A stretch of 64,000 nt of DNA, taken from a virus. Taxonomy: Duplodnaviria > Caudoviricetes. Position 1 is the stretch's first letter; the number at the start of each line of letters is the position of its first letter. Location of the stretch: IMG/VR virus record IMGVR_UViG_3300025382_000004, positions 1 through 64,000 of that record; one strand, given 5' to 3'. Below are positions 2,389-39,012 of the stretch, one piece after another. The notes under the pieces are model-generated. The model worked only from the letters and a program-made list of their open reading frames with translations, was not told where the DNA came from and searched no databases. A program made the position numbers and the translations under genes.

Positions 2389-3049
2389 ATATAGAAAAAT
2401 ATTTGAAGAATATGGATGTTTATATCTCGGCCAATTGTTAAGTGAAAATGAATGTAAAGAAGCATTACTAAAACTTTTTATCGCAAAAGAAAATGGTGAA
2501 AGTATTCATGATGGTATGAATTTTAGTTGTTCTTTTCCGGATAGGCAACTTGATTATCTATTATCAAAAGTGCAACCTGTTATTGAAAAATTAATAGATG
2601 TTAAACTTTTCCCAACATATACATATAGCAGAATTTATCATAGAAGTGATATAATGCAACTACATGTTGATAGAAATGCGTGTGAAATTTCAGTGACTAT
2701 GACATTAGGATATGGAGGAGATTCAATATGGCCACTCATTATTTTACCCAAAAAAGAAACTAAAAAATTAACAAATTATACTAATGATGGGTCATTATAT
2801 GAAGGTGAAAAAATAGAAATCACATCTTATGTAAGAGAAAGATTGGAAAAAATTACTATAGGAATTGGAGATGGTATTTTATATAAAGGTATGGAATTAG
2901 GACACGGTAGAGATAAATTTGTTGAAGGCGATTGGCAAGCACAAGTTTTTTTACATTTTGTAGATGCTAATGGTTTATACAAAGAACACAAATATGATCA
3001 AATTAAAAGAGGAACAATAAATGGAAGCGGGTATGGAAGCGGGTATTGA
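2381..3049 (+). CDS. 2OG-Fe(II) oxygenase (phage type)
   Basis: LHVDR (HxD), CEISVTM, distal HGR, QVFLHFVD; start moved to ATG 2381. Confidence 0.75.
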   Translation: MTEYRKIFEEYGCLYLGQLLSENECKEALLKLFIAKENGESIHDGMNFSCSFPDRQLDYLLSKVQPVIEKLIDVKLFPTYTYSRIYHRSDIMQLHVDRNACEISVTMTLGYGGDSIWPLIILPKKETKKLTNYTNDGSLYEGEKIEITSYVRERLEKITIGIGDGILYKGMELGHGRDKFVEGDWQAQVFLHFVDANGLYKEHKYDQIKRGTINGSGYGSGY

Positions 3050-3353
3050 TTATAAATTTAGAGATGATTTGTTCAACCCAAAAGAAGATGGTTCAACAGT
3101 TCCTATTGAATTAATGGTTGACCCGTTCGCGGGAGTGTGCTATCGTTATACCTATGTCAAGTTTAGAATGGACGAGGATAATGTTCCTCGGATTGGTTAT
3201 GACTATGAAATCCTCAAGACCAATGACTTGTCTATGATGACACTAAGAAAGAATGAAAAGTTTAACACGGCATTAGGGCTTATTTTAAACTCCTTATTGC
3301 TAGATGCGTCAGAAGTGGAAGGTGCTAGTGAGATGAAAGAAGAGGAATCCTAA
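3021..3353 (+). CDS. conserved T4-like hypothetical protein between uvsX and gene 41
   Basis: 110 aa ORF; position typical of T4-like replication block. Confidence 0.6.
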   Translation: MEAGMEAGIDYKFRDDLFNPKEDGSTVPIELMVDPFAGVCYRYTYVKFRMDEDNVPRIGYDYEILKTNDLSMMTLRKNEKFNTALGLILNSLLLDASEVEGASEMKEEES

Positions 3354-3416
3354 ATAGATTGTAGGCCACGGTGCTACCAACACCTGCCTACTCTAATACT
3401 GTTTGGGAGTATCAGC
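3351..3416 (+). promoter_or_regulatory. late promoter TAAATA plus conserved two-hairpin endonuclease leader (copy 1)
   Basis: TAAATA 3351-3356; GTAGGC 3361-66 pairs GCCTAC 3386-91; TCTAA; ATACT/AGTAT hairpin over GGAG SD; CAGC-ATG. Confidence 0.85.
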
Positions 3417-3971
3417 ATGTCTATTTATCCTACCGGTTATTATGTTTATGCGTATCTAAGAAAATCCGATAATACACCATATTATATTGGTAAAGGAAAA
3501 CTACACCGTGCTTGGCGTAGAACATATCATAATGTTTCGGTTCCAAAAGATAGAACTAAAATAGTGATTATGGAATCAAATCTCACAGAGATTGGTGCCT
3601 TAGCATTAGAGAGGTTCTATATTCGTTGGTATGGAAGACAAGATTTAGGAACTGGTATTCTAAAAAATCTAACAGACGGTGGTGAAGGAACCTCAGGATA
3701 TAAACCATCTGAAGAAACATTAAAGAAAAGAGGCGAAGCAATATCCAAGGGTAAAAAAGGTAAACCTGCGTGGAATAAAGGTATGATTATGTCTTATAAG
3801 GGTAAAAAGACCGGCCCAAACCCTAAACTAAGTTTATTGAAAAAAGGTGTTGCCTTAGGCCCTCAAAAGGTTGTAAAATGTCCTCATTGTGGCCTTAGTG
3901 GAGGAATCGCTAATATGAAAAGATTCCATTTTGATAACTGTAAATCTAAGGTGAAAGATGAAAAGTATTGA
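3417..3971 (+). mobile_element. GIY-YIG homing-endonuclease-like gene (free-standing), C-terminal CPHC...HFDNC motif
   Basis: YYVYAYL...PYYIGKG...RAW...[11 protein letters not shown]...NLTDGGEG. Confidence 0.85.
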
Positions 3972-5337
3972 AAAGATTATTATAAAAAACCTGATTACCG
4001 ATTCTAACTTCCTTAGAAAAGTTTTACCTTTCATAAAGTCTGAATACTTCAAGTCAAATGAAGACAGATTACTTTTTGATGAGGTTAAAAACTTTGTGGA
4101 TAAGTATAATCATTCACCAACATATGAATCCCTATCTATTGAGATTGATAATGTTAGAGGTTCAACTGATGATACTATTAAACATATTCAGAATACAATA
4201 AACGAGTTTAAGGAAGACAAATCAGAAACTAACTTTCAGTGGCTGGTGGATTCCACAGAAGACTTCTGCCAAACGGCCGCTATATACAATGCCATAACAT
4301 CATCACTAGAAATAATGAACGGCAAACATAAACTAGAGAAGGGTGCTATACCCGGTCTTTTATCCGATGCTCTATCCATTTCTTTTGACCCGAATGTTGG
4401 CCACGATTATTTGGAACAGTTTGAGGATCGCTATGAGTATTATCACCGTGTTCAAGAAAAGTTGGCATTTGACCTCGACTTCTTTAACAAGATCACTAAA
4501 AACGGGGTACCTAGAAAAACTCTTAATGTGGTTATGGCCGGTGTGGGCGTTGGCAAGTCTTTGTTCCTTTGCCATCTTACTAGCAGCTACCTTAATCAAG
4601 GAAAAAATGTTCTCTATATTACCTTGGAGTTAGCAGAAGAGGAAGTATCAAAGAGAATAGATGCCAATCTTCTGAACATCACCTTTGATGACCTGATGGT
4701 TCTACCAAGAGATATCTACAAATCACGACTTGATAAACTGAAAGCAAAGACAAACGGCAAGCTTATTGTAAAAGAGTATCCAACTTCCTCGGCATCTGCC
4801 ACACATTTCAGGTCTTTGCTAAATGAACTACACCTGAAAAAGAACTTTGTTCCAGATGCCATTATGATTGACTATCTTAACATCTGTTCAAGTTCCCGTA
4901 TCAAACCAGGTGTGGCAAATAGTTATACATATATCAAGGCCATTGCCGAAGAACTAAGAGGTCTGGCAGTTGAGTTTAATGTTCCTGTTTGGTCTGCTAC
5001 ACAGCTTACCAGAGGTGGTTATAACAGTTCTGATCCAGATATGACCGATACTTCCGAGTCCTTTGGTTTGCCTGCTACTGCCGATTTGTTCTTGGCACTC
5101 ATTACAAACGAAACTATGGAACAGTTGAAACAGGTTCAGGTAAAACAGTTGAAGAACCGTTATAATGATCCATCACAGAATAAAAGATTTGTGATTGGTA
5201 TTGACAAAAGCAAGATGAAGTTGTATGATGTAGAACAATCGGCCCAAGACATTGTGGACTCAGGACAGGAAGAAGTGAAACCTATTCCTAGACAGTTTGA
5301 TGGTGGTAAGAACAAGTTCAAAGGATTGAAAGTATGA
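3958..5337 (+). CDS. 41: DnaB-like replicative helicase gp41
   Basis: Walker [39 protein letters not shown]. Confidence 0.95.
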
Positions 5338-10294: not shown

Positions 10295-10379
10295 GTGCCT
10301 AAATAGATATTCCATATTCTTCGGAATGTGGTAGCCACCTGACCACGAAGGTACTGGCCGGTGGCACTTAACTATTACT

Positions 10380-10433
10380 GTAGGTCGCGGATGGCCGTCC
10401 CACCTACTCTAATGCTTTTCTGGAGCACCAGCA
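10380..10433 (+). promoter_or_regulatory. conserved two-hairpin endonuclease leader (copy 2)
   Basis: GTAGGT/ACCTAC, TCTAA, TGCT/AGCA over GGAG, CCAGCAATG. Confidence 0.8.
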
Positions 10434-10958
10434 ATGGATATTTATAAGTCTTTATCAGACACCTTAGGTGTAGAATATATACCTTCTTCCGATTCATCTC
10501 CCCAAAACAACTTTATTCCTTTATTTTCTAATAGGAGCGGATTTGAGGGAAAAAATCATACGGATGAAACTAAGTTATTGCTATCTAAACCAAAGTCGGA
10601 GGAGACAAAACAAAAGATTAGTGCTACTATGAAGTCACTAGGATATATACCGCCTTCTCAAAAAGGTGTAAAAAGAACAGAAGAAACAAAAGCAAAGATA
10701 AGTATTTCTATAAGAAAATCTATATCAAAAGGAAAAAATAAAAATATTATTAGAAATAAGGATCCTAAAACAGATACACACAAACAAAAGATTAGTATAT
10801 CGGTAAGCGCACGATTGAGTTGTCCGGAAATAAAAGAAAAGATGTGTAAACCAAGAAAAGAAATGTGTTGTCCTGTTTGTGGATTAGTTGGTCGTGGTGG
10901 TATTATGAAGAGATACCATTTCACCAACTGTAAAAGCATCCCCAAATCAATGGGGTGA
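10434..10958 (+). mobile_element. nuclease-less homing-endonuclease derivative (NUMOD3 repeats + C-terminal Cys motif)
   Basis: HTDETK, KSEETKQKIS, RTEETKAKIS repeats; CPVCG...HFTNCK like the 3417 protein; no GIY-YIG core. Confidence 0.7.
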
Positions 10959-17774: not shown

Positions 17775-19018
17775 TGCTTAAACTATCACAGTTCATCACC
17801 GAGTCCGCTGCCGAGAAAGACCGTCACCTCACACATATTGAGGATGCCGTGTTGGAAGGTGGTGTTGCTGGTACAAGAAATGCTATACAGTTTTTAATCT
17901 CTCTAAGAGATATGTTTGCCGATGATGGCAAAACTCTGAATGAGGCCCGTGGTGGTCTTATTCTTCGAACTAAGTTCGATGGCGCGCCCGCACTCTATGC
18001 CGGTATCAACCCTGATAACGGTAAGTTCTTTGTCGGTTCTAAAAGTATCTTTAACAAAGGTGCCAAACTAAACTATACCCAAGCGGATATTCGGAGTAAC
18101 CATTCGGGTGGTTTGGCTGATAAACTATCTTTGGCATTAAAGTATCTTCCAGAACTCGGCATTACAGGTATCATACATGGTGATTTTATGTTTTCGCATG
18201 ATGAACTGAAATCGGAGACCATTGATGGTAAGAAGTATATTACATTTAGGCCTAATACGATTACATATGCTGTACCAGAAGGTACTACACTTGCCAGACA
18301 AGTTATGACAGCTAAGATGGGAATTGTTTTCCATACTTCTTACATCGGTAATAGTATGGCCAATCTTCAAACTCACTTCGATGTTGATATTGGGCGGTTA
18401 CATTCATCACGCAATGTCTGGTATAGGACAAATCGTTTCATGGATGTCACAGGTAAGGCCACACTAACCAAGGCAGAGAATGAAAGATTGTCTGGTATTC
18501 TATCACAGGCAGGCAATCTATTCAGACAAATACCTGCGGCACTACTAAACGAGATTGCCTCTAACGACACATATCGTATTCCTATTATGACTTATTACAA
18601 CCAGAAGGTCCGCGCAGGCGAACACATGGGTGCTAATCATGTGAATGAGATTATCAAATTCGTTTCCGACAAGTATGATAAACAGATTGCCGATGCCAAG
18701 ATGCCTGCTACAAAACAAAAAAGAACTATGGAAAAGAATAAGGTTGTTGGTTGGTATCGTAGAAATGCTGTCGGACTCAAAAACATATTCCAACTACAGA
18801 ACCTCTTTATTGATGCCAAGACAATGCTCATTCGCAAATTTGATGAGGTAAACGATATTGGAACTTTTCTACATACTCCGGATGGTGGATATAAAGTTAC
18901 TACACCAGAAGGATATGTTGGTTGTCTTTCAGTTGATGGCCAAGCGTGGAAATTGGTAGACAGGATGAACTTCTCAAGGTCCAATTTCCTTGCGCAAAAA
19001 TCATGGAAGCCTAAATAG
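17774..19018 (+). CDS. conserved T4-like late protein, possible internal head protein
   Basis: HLTHIED, TKFDGAP, PEGYV; N-terminus [10 protein letters not shown] resembles T4 capsid-targeting sequence. Confidence 0.6.
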
Positions 19019-19076
19019 GATGTCCGTCACGGTGCGACAACACCCACGGACTCTAATACTGTTTAGGAGTATCAGC
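19012..19076 (+). promoter_or_regulatory. late promoter plus conserved two-hairpin leader (copy 3)
   Basis: TAAATA; GTCCGT/ACGGAC covariant stem; TCTAA; ATACT/AGTAT; CAGCATG. Confidence 0.85.
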
Positions 19077-19706
19077 ATGTCTATTTATTCCACCACAAAT
19101 CCGCCACCACATTTCTACATTTACGCCTATCTAAGATCGGATGGAACTCCTTATTACATAGGAAAAGGAACTAATTGTCGGGCCTGGAGAAGGAATAAAA
19201 AAGACTTGATAAAAAGACCCACCTGTGATAGAATAGTTATTATGGAATCAGGATTAACGGAATTAGGATCTCTCGCTTTAGAACGACGATATATTAGATG
19301 GTATGGAAGAAAAGATAATGGAACAGGTATTCTAAGGAATAAAACTGATGGTGGTGAAGGAATGATTGGTCCATCGGATGAGTTTAGAAAAAAAAGGAAA
19401 GAATTATGTGAAAAATCCATATGGATCAATAACGGAAAGAATGAAAAGTTTATAGTAAATGGAAATATTCCTAAAGGTTGGAACAAAGGTAGATTACCTG
19501 AAAAAATAGGTGAATGGTTGAAGAAAAGAAGAAATTATAATGGTTCTAATAACCCAGTATTTGGTATGAAAAGACCTGATTTAGTAGAAAGAAACAAAGT
19601 TCCGCAATATTGGATAAATAATGGGATAGATTGTAAAAAGATCCTTGTTTCGGATTTTGGTAAATACCAAGAACTGGGATTTGTTAGAGGGAGATTACCT
19701 TATTGA
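19077..19706 (+). mobile_element. GIY-YIG homing-endonuclease-like gene
   Basis: FYIYAYL...PYYIGKG...[13 protein letters not shown]...TDGGEG; start at ATG 19077 after leader. Confidence 0.85.
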
Positions 19707-25443: not shown

Positions 25444-25676
25444 TGAATAGACCTCCACAAAAAGGAGCAAACAATCAAGGCAGCGGGTCTCTCGGTGCCT
25501 TGGAACATCGTTATGGTTCATCCAAAAAGTTGGCACAGGAAGCAACTAAGGTTGCCTTGCAGAAAGCGACCGATCAAAAGATGCTAAACCCTGGCAAAAC
25601 TGCCACAGGCCAAATTGCGGATCCAATTGCGTTAGACCCTGAAAAAGCAGGGATGCAATCACAAACTTATAGCTAA
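25443..25676 (+). CDS. hypothetical protein
   Basis: 77 aa, TAATG coupling both sides. Confidence 0.6.
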
Positions 25677-26242
25677 TGTATTATATTTACGCATATCTTA
25701 GAAGAGATGGAACACCTTATTACATAGGTAAAGGAAAAGGTAACAGGGCCTGGAGGAAAGACCATAATGTTCCTGTTCCTAGTAAAGATAGGGTAATACT
25801 AATGGAAACAGGTTTGACTAATGTAGGATCTTTAGCATTAGAAAGGTTCTATATTCGTTGGTATGGCCGTAAAGATAACGGAACAGGAATACTAAGAAAT
25901 CTTACCGATGGTGGAGAAGGTACGGAGGGATGTAAAAATCCTAAAAATATAACCACTAAAAACAAAATAAGCGAGACACTAAAACGTAAAGGTATAAAAC
26001 CACCTTCACGTAAAGGTGTAAAGGCTCCTAAAGAGTCCTATACAAATAGTATATTTGAGATAGAAAACATTACTACAGGTGAGTTGTTTACAACTACAAA
26101 CCTTAGAGAATTTTGCCAGGCGAAGGGTTTGACAAGATCAAGTTTGCAGGCAACAGCACCCTATAGTAATGGTATAAATAAATACAACCAACATAAAGGC
26201 TATAGAATAGCCAAAAGAAACTTTATAGAGAAGGAAAACTAA
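25676..26242 (+). mobile_element. GIY-YIG homing-endonuclease-like gene lacking the leader
   Basis: MYYIYAYL...YIGKG...[13 protein letters not shown]...TDGGEG; coupled by TAATG. Confidence 0.85.
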
Positions 26243-28005: not shown

Positions 28006-28006
28006 C

Positions 28007-28073
28007 TAAATAAGAGTGCGGGCCACGGTGCTGTAACACCTGCCCGCTCTAACACTCGGTAAGGAGTATCAGC
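28007..28073 (+). promoter_or_regulatory. late promoter plus conserved two-hairpin leader (copy 4)
   Basis: TAAATA; GCGGGC/GCCCGC covariant stem; TCTAA; GGAG; CAGCATG. Confidence 0.85.
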
Positions 28074-28628
28074 ATGTATTATATATATGCTTACATAAGG
28101 CAGTATGATTCTAAAACTGCTAAAGCAGGAACACCTTATTATATTGGTAAGGGTAAAAAATATAGACTAAAAAATAAGAAAAAAGGTCATAATATACCTA
28201 TACCAAAAGATAAAAAATTTATTGTAATTATGGAATCCGATTTGACAGAGATTGGTGCATTTGCTCTTGAAAGATTTTATATTCGTTGGTATGGGCGTAA
28301 AGATTTAGAAACTGGAATTTTATTGAATAGAACTGATGGTGGTGAAGGTGTTTCTGGATATAAAGCAACAGAAAAATCAAAGCAAATCAGGCGCGAAAGA
28401 TTATTAGGTAGTAAAAGAACAAAACAAACTATTAACAATATGATTGAGGGTATATCAAAAAATTGGTTGATAACTTTTCCTGATGGACATAAAGAAATGA
28501 TAAAAAATATGGCAAAATTTTGTAGAGAACATAATTTGTCAAAATCACTTATGCACTTGACATCCGTAGGAAACAGGCCACATCATAAAGGATACTCGGC
28601 GATTAGATATGATACAAGACCTAAATGA
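28074..28628 (+). mobile_element. GIY-YIG homing-endonuclease-like gene
   Basis: YYIYAYI...YIGKG...[13 protein letters not shown]...TDGGEG. Confidence 0.85.
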
Positions 28629-32451: not shown

Positions 32452-34347
32452 ATGGATTTATACAGCCAATTCATATATAAGAGTCGTTATAGTCGTTATC
32501 TGCCAAAACAAAATCGTCGTGAAAACTGGGAAGAAACTATAAATCGTTATCTTGACTTTATGGAAAATCATCTCCAAGAAAAGCATCAATACGATATAAA
32601 GCCTATTCGTTCTCGTTTGTTTGATGCTATTCACGATCTAAAAGTTATGCCAAGTATGCGATCACTAATGACTGCTGGCAAGGCTTTGGAACGTGACAAC
32701 ACCTGCGGATACAACTGCTCATTCTTGCCTGTAGATGATCCAAAAGCATTTGATGAAGCAATGTTTGTCCTCTTGTGTGGAACAGGCGTAGGTTTTTCGG
32801 TAGAGAGACAATTCATCAATCAGTTGCCAGAAATTCCGGAAAAACTATTTGACTCGGAGACTACCATTTCCGTTAGAGATAGTAAGGAAGGTTGGGCCAA
32901 GGCACTTCGTATGCTTATTGCTCTACTTTATACTGGAGAGATTCCAAAGTGGGACTTGACAAAAGTTCGTCCCGCTGGTGCTCCGCTAAAAACATTTGGT
33001 GGTCGTAGTTCCGGACCCGAACCATTACATGAACTATTCAGATTTGTTGTAAAAACATTTCGTAACGCCCATGGCCGCCGTCTGACATCATTAGAGTGTC
33101 ACGATATTCTATGTAAAATAGGCGAGGTAGTGGTTGTTGGTGGTGTTCGTCGTTCTGCTATGATTAGTTTGTCTAACCTTAGCGATGATAGAATGAGACA
33201 TTGTAAATCAGGAAGTTGGTGGGAAGCAAATCCACAACGAGCATTGTCAAACAACTCTGCCGTGTATAATGAGAAGCCAGAAGTTGGCACATTCATGGCA
33301 GAATGGATTTCATTGTATGAAAGTAAATCAGGTGAGAGAGGACTATTCAGCCGTGAAGCATGTCAAACAATCGCAAAACGAAATGGCAGAAGAAATAGTG
33401 AACAACTATTTGGCACAAACCCATGTAGCGAAATTATCCTTCGCCCATATGGATTCTGCAATCTTACGGAAGTTGTTATCCGAGCCGATGACACCATGGA
33501 AACTATTCGTGATAAAATTGAGGTTGCGACTATTCTTGGTACTTTTCAATCTACTCTTACGGATTTTCCCTACCTAAGAAAGATTTGGGTTAAGAATGCC
33601 GAAGAAGAAAGACTACTTGGTGTTTCTCTTACAGGCATCTATGACTCCAAACTATTCAACAATCCACAAGATAAAGAAATCAAGGCACGCCTTGCTTCTC
33701 TCCGTGACTATGCTGTTGAGGTGAATAATGGACTTGCTGAAAAACTTGGTATTAATCCTGCCGCTGCTATTACTTGTGTCAAGCCTTCTGGCACAGTATC
33801 GCAACTATGCGACTCCGCGTCTGGTATTCATCCACGGCATTCTAATTATTATATCCGTCGTGTTCGGGCTGATAATAAAGATCCTCTAACAAAGTTTATG
33901 AAAGAGAAGGGTGTGCCTTGGGAACCAGATGTGATGAAGCCTGATTCCACAACTGTATTTTCTTTCCCACAGAAAGCACCAAAGGGTGCCGTGGTTCGTG
34001 ATGACATTGATGCTATCAAACATTTGGAGTTGTGGGCGGTGTATCAGGAACACTTCACGGAACATAAGCCATCAGTTACGATTACTGTTCGTGAGGATGA
34101 ATGGATGAAAGTTGGTGCCTGGGTTTACGACCACTTTGATGAAATGTCCGGCGTCTCGTTCTTGCCTTATGATGGTGGTAGCTACCGGCAAGCACCTTAT
34201 GAGGCCATAACCAAAGACCTTTACGATGCTATGTTACCTTCCATTCCAACCGAAATAAACTGGGATGAACTCAAAGAGTTTGAGGATAATGTGGAGGGGG
34301 TGCAGACCTTGGCCTGTAGTGCGGCAGGCGGTGGATGCGACATCTAA
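32452..34347 (+). CDS. nrdJ: class II (B12-dependent) ribonucleotide reductase
   Basis: YNCSF, GGVRRSA, TNPCSEI, CVKPSGT, C-terminal [10 protein letters not shown]; no beta-subunit gene nearby. Confidence 0.9.
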
Positions 34348-35075
34348 TGTTTTGATAGTTTGGCCTTGGATATAGCCTTACCAACTCTAAGGTTATATTC
34401 GGGGTCAGACCATCTTACTTTGTTTCTATAAGACGCAGCGCAGGACTTATTACAGAAATGTGCGGCCTTTCTATTATTGGCGGTATCTCTTTCTGTATGT
34501 TCTTTACCACAATGCTTACAATGCCAGGTGAATGTAGAAAGTATTTTGTTATAAGGTTCTAATCCTGGCGTTCCTTTGTTATAACGACCTTTTAGTTTTT
34601 CGGAAACTTTTTTGGCAATCTCCGGATCCTTCATGGGATTGTTAGTAAGGAATCTTTCACGCTGTTGTGGATTAGAAATACCTTTGTTAGGAGCAGGACG
34701 ACCAAGTGCCTTTTGTCTTATCTTTTCTCTTGTTTCAGGAGAATGTATTCCAGTTTTTCCTTTATTAGGATGCTGAAAACCAGATTGTCCGTTTCCACCA
34801 TCAGACAGATTGCGGAGAATACCAGTACCATTGTCTTTGCGACCATACCATCTAATGTAGAATCGTTCTAAGGCAAAAGCACCAAGTTCTGTTAGATTGG
34901 CCTCCATAATAATGATTTTGCTATGGTCTTTTGGTGGTTGAGCATTACATTGTCTATGACGGCGCCAGGCACGATTACTTTTGCCTTTACCAATGTAATA
35001 GACATTACCATTCTTGGAAATATATGCGTAAATATAGAACTCTGGTGGTAGATTTGTGGTAGAATAAATAGCCAT
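34344..35075 (-). mobile_element. GIY-YIG homing-endonuclease-like gene, inverted; C-terminal CxxC...C Zn/TRASH-like motif
   Basis: FYIYAYI...YYIGKG...[13 protein letters not shown]...SDGGNG; CKHCGKE...HFCNKSC. Confidence 0.85.
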
Positions 35076-35141
35076 GCTGATACCTCCGTATAAGGTGTTA
35101 GAGTAGGCAGGTTCCCCAACCGTGGCCTACAACCCTATTTA
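35076..35141 (-). promoter_or_regulatory. late promoter plus conserved two-hairpin leader (copy 5, minus strand)
   Basis: Reverse complement: TAAATA...GTAGGC CAC GG TTGGGGAA CC T GCCTAC TCTAA CACCT...GGAGGT ATCAGC ATG. Confidence 0.85.
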
Positions 35142-35161
35142 GTAAACATGAAAGTTAATAT

Positions 35162-35623
35162 ATGAGAAAACTACTAATAGCATTATTACTAATATCAACA
35201 CCAGCAATGGCACTTGACCCTTTGCTGCCAAACCACCAACTAACACCAGGCGCAACTCTTCCTGTTACAGAGAAAGAGGTCTGCGTTCCTGGTTATGCTG
35301 GTCGTGTTAGAAATGTTCCACAGTTTGTGAAGAACAAAGCATACCAGATTTATGGTATTACATCTCGCAAACCCGGTCAGTATGAGATAGACCACCTAAT
35401 CAGTTTACAGTTAGGTGGATCAAATGATCTTAGCAATCTTTGGCCACAGTCATACGTGACACTACCGTGGAATGCCCATGTGAAAGATAAACTTGAGAAT
35501 AAACTACATGCCTTGGTGTGTAGTGGTCAGATGACCTTGAAAGAAGCACAGGAGAAGATTTCAGGAGACTGGACTAAAGCTTACTGTGAAGTTTTTGGTA
35601 TTACCAACTGTAATGGAGACTAA
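35162..35623 (+). CDS. secreted HNH-like nuclease
   Basis: Signal peptide AMA|L; EIDHLISLQLGGSNDLSNLWPQ. Confidence 0.7.
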   Translation: MRKLLIALLLISTPAMALDPLLPNHQLTPGATLPVTEKEVCVPGYAGRVRNVPQFVKNKAYQIYGITSRKPGQYEIDHLISLQLGGSNDLSNLWPQSYVTLPWNAHVKDKLENKLHALVCSGQMTLKEAQEKISGDWTKAYCEVFGITNCNGD

Positions 35624-38123: not shown

Positions 38124-38347
38124 ACGTTATAATGTATTCAAAAGATGACTGTGCCTTTTGTGATAAGGCCAAAAACTTGTTAAAGATGAAGGCAATTGAG
38201 TTTATTGAGTATAAACTTGGTAAGGACTTTGACCGTGATACCCTTTTGGAACAGTTCCCAGAGGCACGAACATTTCCTGTAATAACACTTAATAAAGAAT
38301 ATATCGGTGGTTTTAATGAACTTGAAAAGTTGCTGAATACTAAATAA
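38120..38347 (+). CDS. glutaredoxin
   Basis: YSKDDCAFC, TFPVI, YIGGF. Confidence 0.9.
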   Translation: MNVIMYSKDDCAFCDKAKNLLKMKAIEFIEYKLGKDFDRDTLLEQFPEARTFPVITLNKEYIGGFNELEKLLNTK

Positions 38348-38403
38348 GTGTGTAGGCCACGGATTGGCGTCCTGCCTACTCTAATGCTTTAGGGAGCACC
38401 AGC
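38341..38403 (+). promoter_or_regulatory. late promoter plus conserved two-hairpin leader (copy 6)
   Basis: TAAATA; GTAGGC/GCCTAC; TCTAA; TGCT/AGCA over GGAG; CCAGCATG. Confidence 0.85.
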
Positions 38404-39012
38404 ATGTCTATTTATCCTACCGGTTTCTACATTTACGCCTATCTACGCAAATCCAACTTAACACCTTACTATATTGGAAAAGGTAAAGGTGAAAGAGCGT
38501 GGAATAGCAAAAGTCATACAAAAAACAATAATGCAAGGACTCCTAAAGACAAAAGATATATTGTTATTATGGAATCCAATCTAACGGAACTTGGCGCTTT
38601 TGCTTTAGAAAGATTTTATATTCGTTGGTATGGCCGTAAAGATATCGGAACAGGTATATTGAGAAACCTGACTTATGGTGGTGATGGAGCAGAAGGTTAT
38701 ATTTTCACCAAGGAACAACTTGAGAAAAGAGGAAAAAATATCTCTTCGTCAAAAAAAGGAAAACCCCTTACGAGAAAAGCATTGGAATCAAAGAAAAAAT
38801 ACTTTTATGAAGTTGTCTGTTCCGATGGTAATATAGTTAATACAGATAACTTACAACAGTTTTGTAGAGATAATAAACTGGATATGTCAGCCTTATCCAG
38901 AACCGTGAATAAAGAAAGAAAACAACACAAAGGATTCTATGTGAAGAAAAGACTTGACAAAAAGTATATTGGCGGTTATAATGAGTTGTATGATTTGCTA
39001 CTAACTCACTAA
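38404..39012 (+). mobile_element. GIY-YIG homing-endonuclease-like gene fused to a displaced glutaredoxin C-terminus
   Basis: GIY-YIG core; ends [19 protein letters not shown]. Confidence 0.85.
38954..38982 (+). promoter_or_regulatory. sigma70 consensus promoter inside the duplicated glutaredoxin tail
   Basis: TTGACA-17-TATAAT. Confidence 0.85.

Follow-up and report, generated by a model that had tools for sequence, protein, structure and literature searches.

Six genes in a 64,000-nt stretch of the viral contig IMGVR_UViG_3300025382_000004 (hereafter the window; the whole contig is 88.9 kb long and 53% complete) are headed by copies of one conserved two-hairpin element, and the RNA fold of this element is selected on the strand opposite the nuclease gene. 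With confidence only slightly above even, we propose that each repeat is a copy of a portable head cassette of ~80 bp, in which convergent late boxes would make a cis-antisense RNA that restrains the nuclease. T4-type late-promoter boxes, convergent in direction, mark its two ends. Of these, the forward one would give rise to a nuclease mRNA starting at the foot of the first hairpin, P1, and the reverse box (ATAAATA), written into the wobble base of codon 2 and the Ile-Tyr codons 3 and 4, would give rise to a minus-sense RNA starting one base before hairpin P2'. This predicted RNA of about 65–72 nt would contain a 5' hairpin of 8–9 bp with an anti-Shine–Dalgarno CUCC in its loop; a two-part hairpin of 6 bp, a 1x3 internal loop, 4–5 bp, and usually a tetraloop; and a U-rich tail complementary to the forward box. 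By position it is complementary to the 5' untranslated region (UTR), the Shine–Dalgarno site, and the AUG, from the AUG-proximal CAGC to the 5' end of the mRNA. Most likely it would pair with the mRNA via loop–loop contacts first, whereupon ribosome binding would be blocked or decay triggered, and late nuclease expression would be held low.

A covariance model run on the whole contig found exactly six sites, with E values from about 8e-20 to 8e-15, and the next match had an E value of 1.6. These are the six copies that an earlier reading made from the letters alone (the sequence-only reading) had described, with all the stems, loops, and motifs it had named. The spaced pattern TCTAA-N14-20-CAGCA occurs in the window more often than chance would give, seven times against 0.92 expected. 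Each copy consists of a 6-bp outer stem, a CRC/Y internal loop, a G-C-closed inner hairpin, the sequence TCTAA, a short hairpin holding part of the GGAG, and CAGC(A)ATG. The outer stem appears as GTAGGC/GCCTAC in three copies and as GTAGGT/ACCTAC, GTCCGT/ACGGAC, and GCGGGC/GCCCGC in the others; the variants of the second stem are TACT/AGTA, TGCT/AGCA, and ACCT/AGGT. The conserved block extends to codon 4 of the gene, beyond the extent first reported. In copy 1, on the plus strand (3349–3429), the forward box CTAAATA (3350–3356) is followed by P1 (3361–3391), which is made up of the outer stem (3361–3366/3386–3391), a CAC loop (3367–3369), and the inner hairpin (3370–3384). Then come TCTAA (3392–3396), CAGC (3413–3416), and the ATG (3417–3419), with the extended second hairpin P2 at 3393–3415. 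The reverse box reads GATAAATA on the minus strand (complement of 3422–3429), and the predicted antisense RNA would run on that strand from ~3416 down to ~3345.

To collect further copies, we ran a sequence pattern free of any stem requirement on IMG/VR, and a second sample of 80 loci was picked solely by similarity to the GIY-YIG protein. Pooling the pattern-selected and protein-selected loci gave 151 distinct parsed copies. Pairing was counted in cells, one cell being one base pair in one copy. A count on 99 distinct IMG/VR copies showed pairing in 92.4% of the cells versus 72% in shuffles, and 294 cells changed on both sides versus 78 in shuffles. These compensatory changes bear out the claim of the sequence-only reading that selection acts on RNA structure. 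All three helices covary in the 151 copies, with double-sided change at every pair of the outer stem, and the G-C pair closing the CRC/Y internal loop (3x1) is kept in 151 of 151.

The strand on which the fold is selected can be read from the wobble pairs, since an A.C mismatch on the sense strand equals a G.U pair on the antisense strand. The outer stem, P1a, contains 865 Watson–Crick cells, 28 A.C cells, and no sense G.U; this ratio of A.C to sense G.U was 12:0 in the pattern-selected subset and 16:0 in the protein-selected subset. The minus-strand alignment was scored with a 19-pair structure, across which G.U occurs solely on the antisense strand in 228 cells versus solely on the sense strand in 34. 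The same structure is paired in 95.9% of the cells on the antisense strand versus 85.3% on the sense strand, and P1a is paired to 100% on the antisense strand. Thirteen of its pairs change on both sides, and the observed values were reached by none of 500 shuffles. Furthermore, the median minimum free energy (MFE) of the module is −18.3 kcal/mol for the antisense strand versus −13.5 kcal/mol for the sense strand, and the antisense fold is the more stable in 145 of the 151 copies (Wilcoxon 6e-26), including all six in the window. The biases in G.U versus A.C, in pairing, and in MFE indicate, therefore, that the element is not primarily an mRNA leader, as the sequence-only reading had taken it to be. 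They also bear on a role at the level of DNA, in which the cassettes would serve for recombination or landing, form a cruciform, or present a common target to a nuclease. Such a role would suit an element that is common to unrelated genes and moves between sites, but compensatory changes keep the pairing while the sequence drifts, and the imbalance between G.U and A.C marks one RNA strand rather than duplex DNA; we consider this explanation very improbable.

The minus strand also accounts for two motifs that have no partner in the sense fold as first described. The complements of TCTAA and CAGC pair together on the minus strand (C-G, U-A, and an invariant G.U), and the second hairpin thereby reaches 8–9 bp. 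Their invariance is explained because both pair with each other there. At the pair next to the two motifs there is covariation, T/C-CAGC accompanying TCTAA and A-CAGC accompanying TCTAT. The sense P2 covers just the 3' half of the GGAG and is weak (median −2.7 kcal/mol). The sequence-only reading had argued that repression by this hairpin would persist in late mRNA and would call for a ligand- or protein-controlled switch; because the sense Shine–Dalgarno hairpin is weak, the argument has little basis. In that riboswitch-like mRNA leader, the internal loop would be a C-loop protein site, an asymmetric loop whose bases make triples in three dimensions with the pairs on either side, and the leader would possibly be under autoregulation by the nuclease or by the protein encoded at 10434. 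The conservation of the CRC/Y loop with its closing G-C pair and of several other unpaired positions is what one would look for in such a leader. However, it is the opposite strand that is under selection; mutual information showed nested helices only, with no pseudoknot, pocket, or tertiary covariation; the supposedly unpaired TCTAA and CAGC pair mutually; and at E ≤ 10 the six loci matched no Rfam riboswitch family, the only hits being two chance long non-coding RNA matches elsewhere. A ligand switch or autoregulation is unlikely, and among the explanations weighed here we give the riboswitch-like leader the lowest probability.

The present phage is T4-like as judged by its gp41 helicase, which is 57–60% identical to the helicases of Kyanoviridae-type T4-like phages; the late promoters of these phages are of the TATAAATA type (PMC2988022). 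A forward box, (C/A)TAAATA, lies 3–5 nt from the outer stem of P1 in 133 of the 151 copies. Nearly all genes behind the cassette start with M-x-I-Y. In nucleotides this start reads T-ATT-TAT, which complements the late-promoter box ATAAATA exactly, and therefore a second box faces back into the cassette. The constraint is on the nucleotides: codon 2, although it encodes 14 different amino acids, ends in T in 126 of the 137 copies counted (74 expected; P 4e-22), and this wobble base with the following ATT TAT gives TATTTAT, a discrete low-entropy 7-mer between high-entropy positions. Independent variation is also seen at the bases immediately 5' of the two boxes, which is what two separate promoters, rather than a selected helix, would be expected to show. 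Both forms of the box are also found 20–60 nt upstream of other open reading frames (ORFs) on the contig. In T4, transcription starts ~6 nt past the late box. Given the spacing of 3–5 nt, the mRNA would therefore start at the foot of the P1 stem; the reverse box is followed by NN-CAU-G and then by the first pair of P2', so that by the same rule the antisense RNA too would start at a stem foot.

In the window, CTAAATA stands 4–5 nt upstream in five of the six copies, so that the TAAATA box which the sequence-only reading had placed at every copy is present at five and absent at copy 2 (10380). Copy 2 (10368–10446, plus strand) contains P1 at 10380–10407, TCTAA at 10408–10412, CAGCA at 10429–10433, the ATG at 10434–10436, and a perfect TATAAATA on the minus strand at 10439–10446. 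In this copy, which heads a nuclease-less NUMOD3 gene, the fold and the perfect reverse TATAAATA are thus retained and the forward box is lost; the nearest CTAAATA, at 10299, is ~75 nt upstream and comes with a separate small hairpin (10299–10340). Copy 3 (19010–19089, plus strand) has its forward CTAAATA at 19011–19017, P1 at 19022–19051, TCTAA at 19052–19056, the ATG at 19077–19079, and the reverse box as the complement of 19082–19088. Copy 4 (28006–28086, plus strand) shows the forward CTAAATA at 28006–28012, P1 at 28018–28047, TCTAA at 28048–28052, and the ATG at 28074–28076; its reverse box is degenerate, and the gene starts with MYYIY (TATTATATAT). Copy 5 lies on the minus strand (35063–35142), with CTAAATA at 35142–35136, P1 at 35130–35103, TCTAA at 35102–35098, and the ATG at 35075–35073; its reverse box is AATAAATA on the plus strand (35063–35070), 91 nt upstream of the divergent ORF 35162–35623. 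Copy 6 (38340–38416, plus strand) has CTAAATA at 38340–38346, P1 at 38352–38379, TCTAA at 38380–38384, the ATG at 38404–38406, and the reverse box as the complement of 38409–38415. The upstream gene ends within the forward box in three copies, its TAA stop being the TAA of CTAAATA (3351–3353, 19016–19018, and 38345–38347).

Since the two boxes are exact complements, they also admit a sense leader gated in time in the manner of T4. When early or middle transcription reads through, the box AUAAAUA would pair in the mRNA with UAUUUAU of codons 2–4, and this pairing (P0) would close a three-way junction of P0, P1, and P2 around the Shine–Dalgarno site and the AUG; late transcripts, starting at the foot of P1, would have no 5' strand of P0 and would be translated, with P1 doubling as a 5'-terminal stabilising hairpin. 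The spacing between the box and P1 does set the late transcription start at the stem foot, and a P0 of 6–11 bp can be drawn in 108 of 134 copies, where it is mildly favourable (median change in folding free energy, ddG, −1.85 kcal/mol; below zero in 81% of the copies). The logic is the same as that of I-TevI, segB, mobE, e, and soc (PMC2988022). However, such a helix arises automatically from two facing identical boxes, and it was rare in unconstrained folding, with a median expected pairing of 0.24 bp and at least 4 bp in 21% of the copies. There was no clear covariation at the extension positions (outward P 0.71, inward P 0.016; the seventh pair is A.C in 12 copies), the Shine–Dalgarno site and the AUG had equal unpaired probabilities in long and late transcripts, and the strand bias is left unexplained. 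We regard the gating explanation as unlikely, though it is the main rival. A pairing of the box with the Shine–Dalgarno loop was also considered; it was predicted in copies 1 and 3 only and is not general.

The minus-strand fold might instead not regulate the nuclease, and might be a short element that stops or insulates transcription or one that supplies neighbouring phage genes on the opposite strand with a late promoter and a structured 5' leader. In favour of this, the tail after P1', which is the complement of the forward box and its spacer, is U-rich (median 6–7 U in 12 nt; the commonest form is ACUUUUAUUUAU), and the reverse box of copy 5 points at the divergent ORF 35162–35623, 91 nt away; the cassette in a relative, L063, is likewise divergent from its neighbour. 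Against this, the upstream gene runs in the same direction as the cassette in five of the six window copies, where a minus-strand RNA would enter coding sequence in antisense and find nothing there to express, and the constant overlap with the Shine–Dalgarno site and the AUG would be unaccounted for. We consider a stop or donated leader a distinctly improbable account of the fold.

The antisense RNA that we propose has difficulties of its own. Twenty-six cells in the apical part of P1b pair solely on the sense strand. The antisense scheme also offers no explanation for the 1x3 internal loop (antisense R / GYG), which is conserved. A simple scan showed no canonical terminator after the fold, so that the 3' end of the RNA is uncertain, and the U-rich tail in the window copies begins 4–5 nt past the stem. 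A search of the contig for T4 gp55 was negative, which is uninformative because the contig is a 53% fragment. The reverse box of copy 4 is degenerate, copy 2 is without a forward box, and the copy in Pseudoalteromonas phage vB_Psh_XG4 (see below) has neither a clear box nor M-x-I-Y; because of these deviations, the hairpins may have a role beyond the two-box antisense scheme. Finally, two facing boxes also allow a helix on the sense strand, and hence a possible sense-strand role.

The genes behind the cassette are of many kinds. Copy 1 heads a GIY-YIG-type homing endonuclease of 184 amino acids starting with MSIY (3417–3971, plus strand), the 3' end of which overlaps the start of the gp41 helicase gene at 3958. 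Copy 2 heads a NUMOD3-only ORF of 174 amino acids starting with MDIY (10434–10958, plus strand), without a GIY-YIG core. The other four head paralogues of the GIY-YIG-type endonuclease: 209 amino acids at 19077–19706 (plus strand), 184 at 28074–28628 (plus strand), 243 at 34344–35075 (minus strand, with a weak PF01541 match), and 202 at 38404–39012 (plus strand). Across the collected loci, cassette-headed ORFs have N-termini of at least 21 classes and include GIY-YIG proteins of several clades, HNH, HNH_3+AP2, Vsr-like/MTES_1575, and nuclease-less NUMOD3-only proteins; the cassette is thus independent of the nuclease family. Judged from these sequences, the constraint resides in the cassette and not in the protein, because the same cassette heads unrelated gene families. 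This diversity leaves no common cis-encoded protein for a riboswitch-like leader, and control by the nuclease or by the 10434 protein, suggested in the sequence-only reading, was rejected on the same ground.

The start M-x-I-Y is near-universal among cassette-headed genes of all these families and absent in 15 homologues without the cassette. The window contains an internal control: a seventh GIY-YIG paralogue (25676–26242, plus strand) has neither a cassette nor M-x-I-Y. It starts with MYYIYAY, is 41% identical to the 28074 protein, and its ATG overlaps the upstream stop codon (TAATG). Because the cassette-less homologues and this paralogue are without M-x-I-Y, we take the first four codons to be part of the nucleotide element. 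Close homologues without the cassette have a plain late-promoter leader or overlap the upstream gene. Homologous GIY-YIG genes with no cassette were seen at L129 (S-SRM01), L131 (B23), L143, L163, L174, L197, and L204, where the alternative, 'plain' head of the gene runs from a terminator hairpin through a (G/T)ATAAATA box to a short leader without structure.

The cassette occurs in uncultured T4-like phages: by the stem-free pattern it is present in more than 116 IMG/VR contigs, and at 64 of the 80 protein-selected loci the element lies directly upstream of the GIY-YIG gene. Neither megablast with the window nor blastn with two cassette copies matched any GenBank phage; the covariance model found one divergent copy among them, in vB_Psh_XG4 (L130:1415–1495; PP712099.1 56141–56208, a record flagged UNVERIFIED_ORG). 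This copy has the same two hairpins with a CGC loop; its linker is TGTAG, it has no clear late box, and its gene does not start with M-x-I-Y. The model found no copy in S-SRM01, B23, ACG-2014f, BcepSauron, T4, Aeh1, Melnitz-3, DSL-LC02, or S-PM2. Rfam 15 contained no family for the cassette at the gathering threshold (the scan of the window returned transfer-messenger RNA (tmRNA) only); the scan at E ≤ 10 gave none either, so that the Rfam match which the sequence-only reading had said would remove novelty was not found.

A close relative, with a gp41 protein 85% identical, has an empty site at the position of window copy 1 (between the counterpart of ORF 3021–3353 and gp41) and carries a cassette with an endonuclease nearby upstream, in the opposite orientation. 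The comparison was made for L063:6690–7220 and L106:1–800 against 3063–4018, where the ORF upstream of gp41 has 95.6% nucleotide identity. Because the relative has the empty site at copy 1 and the cassette elsewhere in the other orientation, the element is portable. The sequence-only reading had likewise called promoter, leader, and nuclease a portable unit; the portability holds, and the unit is rather the promoter, the fold, and the first four codons, not tied to one nuclease family. Recoding is seen in the window on both sides of the insertion, at the tail of the upstream ORF and over the first ~20 codons of gp41.

Several known systems resemble parts of the scheme. E. coli SymR/SymE and phage P22 sar are of the same kind as the RNA-OUT antisense RNA. 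RNA-OUT, which acts on RNA-IN of IS10/Tn10, is a 69-nt cis-antisense RNA (PMC5006887). As in RNA-OUT and SymR, an outward-facing promoter (here predicted) would lie within the 5' end of a selfish or toxic gene, and a short, stably folded antisense RNA (here predicted) would be complementary to the translation-initiation region. In RNAs of this kind, pairing blocks ribosome binding and action in trans makes repression rise with copy number; we propose the first for the cassette by analogy, and the second might apply to it too. Unlike in RNA-OUT, the promoters of the cassette are phage late-type boxes that are mutually complementary, the antisense RNA would span the whole 5' UTR, and one cassette is common to many unrelated nuclease genes; there is no sequence or Rfam relationship.

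In the case of I-TevI, I-TevII, I-TevIII, segB, and mobE of T-even and Aeh1 phages, late promoters are combined with hairpins that sequester the ribosome-binding site (PMC2988022). Like them, the cassette belongs to homing endonuclease genes in T4-like phages, has a late promoter of the TATAAATA type immediately in front, and places RNA structure near the Shine–Dalgarno site that would limit or time translation of the nuclease. However, theirs is an mRNA hairpin with the promoter within its 5' arm, whereas the cassette box stands clear of P1 and P2 alike, with selection of the fold on the opposite strand; the covariance model matched neither T4 nor Aeh1. From ocean metagenomes, Dassa et al. 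(2009, PMC2677866) described RNAfold hairpins that come with TATAAATA and conserved complementary motifs and lie in the 5' UTR of 'fractured gene' endonucleases of the GIY-YIG and Vsr-like families. Aquatic metagenomes, T4-like late boxes, hairpins before endonucleases of different families, and a 3' overlap with the downstream gene are common to both, and, compared by description, the hairpins of that paper are quite possibly the same element. The paper reads them only as mRNA hairpins and contains no strand analysis, second promoter, covariance model, or family definition (PMC2677866). Unlike its fractured genes, gp41 in the window is intact. A link to split-intein 'fractured genes' was rejected, as no fractured gp41 or nrdJ was found in the loci collected. 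The ~225-nt antisense RNA CfrI of cyanophage S-PM2 faces both psbA and a homing endonuclease gene (Millard et al. 2010, as cited in PMC2984593). It resembles the proposed RNA in lying opposite a homing endonuclease gene of a T4-like phage; according to that citing account, CfrI was detected experimentally, whereas the cassette RNA is predicted, and CfrI is longer and joins the endonuclease gene to psbA. The best covariance-model match in S-PM2 had an E value of 1.06 in an unrelated place, and by the model CfrI is unrelated to the cassette.

Homing endonucleases need low, well-timed expression, and their known controls, mRNA hairpins and autorepression, are each gene-specific. To our knowledge, an antisense control layer shared by homing endonucleases has not previously been described. 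If our proposal is right, one cassette serving hundreds of unrelated nuclease genes via antisense RNA would add a control layer for selfish phage DNA that is both new and widespread, in a very compact natural design of two facing late promoters and an antisense brake that is directly testable. The cassette would also be a clear candidate for a new RNA family, and it would explain the odd N-terminus M-x-I-Y shared by unrelated nucleases as a promoter written into codons, which calls for caution in gene annotation. More tentatively, and with somewhat less than even confidence, we suggest that the cassette is a horizontally exchanged 'nuclease governor' shared among aquatic T4-like phages: a two-promoter antisense small-RNA cassette that would accept any homing endonuclease (GIY-YIG, HNH, or Vsr-like). 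Since the predicted antisense RNAs share invariant segments, they could act in trans between the cassette copies of one genome, which, if true, would mean copy-number-dependent control of all its selfish nucleases, or competition among them.

Two further features of the window were noted. The 3' ends of endonuclease ORFs overlap the start of the downstream gene by 4–20 nt at 3958–3971, 19703–19706, and 28609–28628; such an overlap was noted for metagenomic endonucleases too, by Dassa et al. (2009, PMC2677866). The window also encodes a phage tmRNA (53026–53354, plus strand; Rfam RF01849 and RF04321, ARAGORN), which is circularly permuted (alpha-type, two-piece) and has the tag peptide ANDNSAYQDLALAA.

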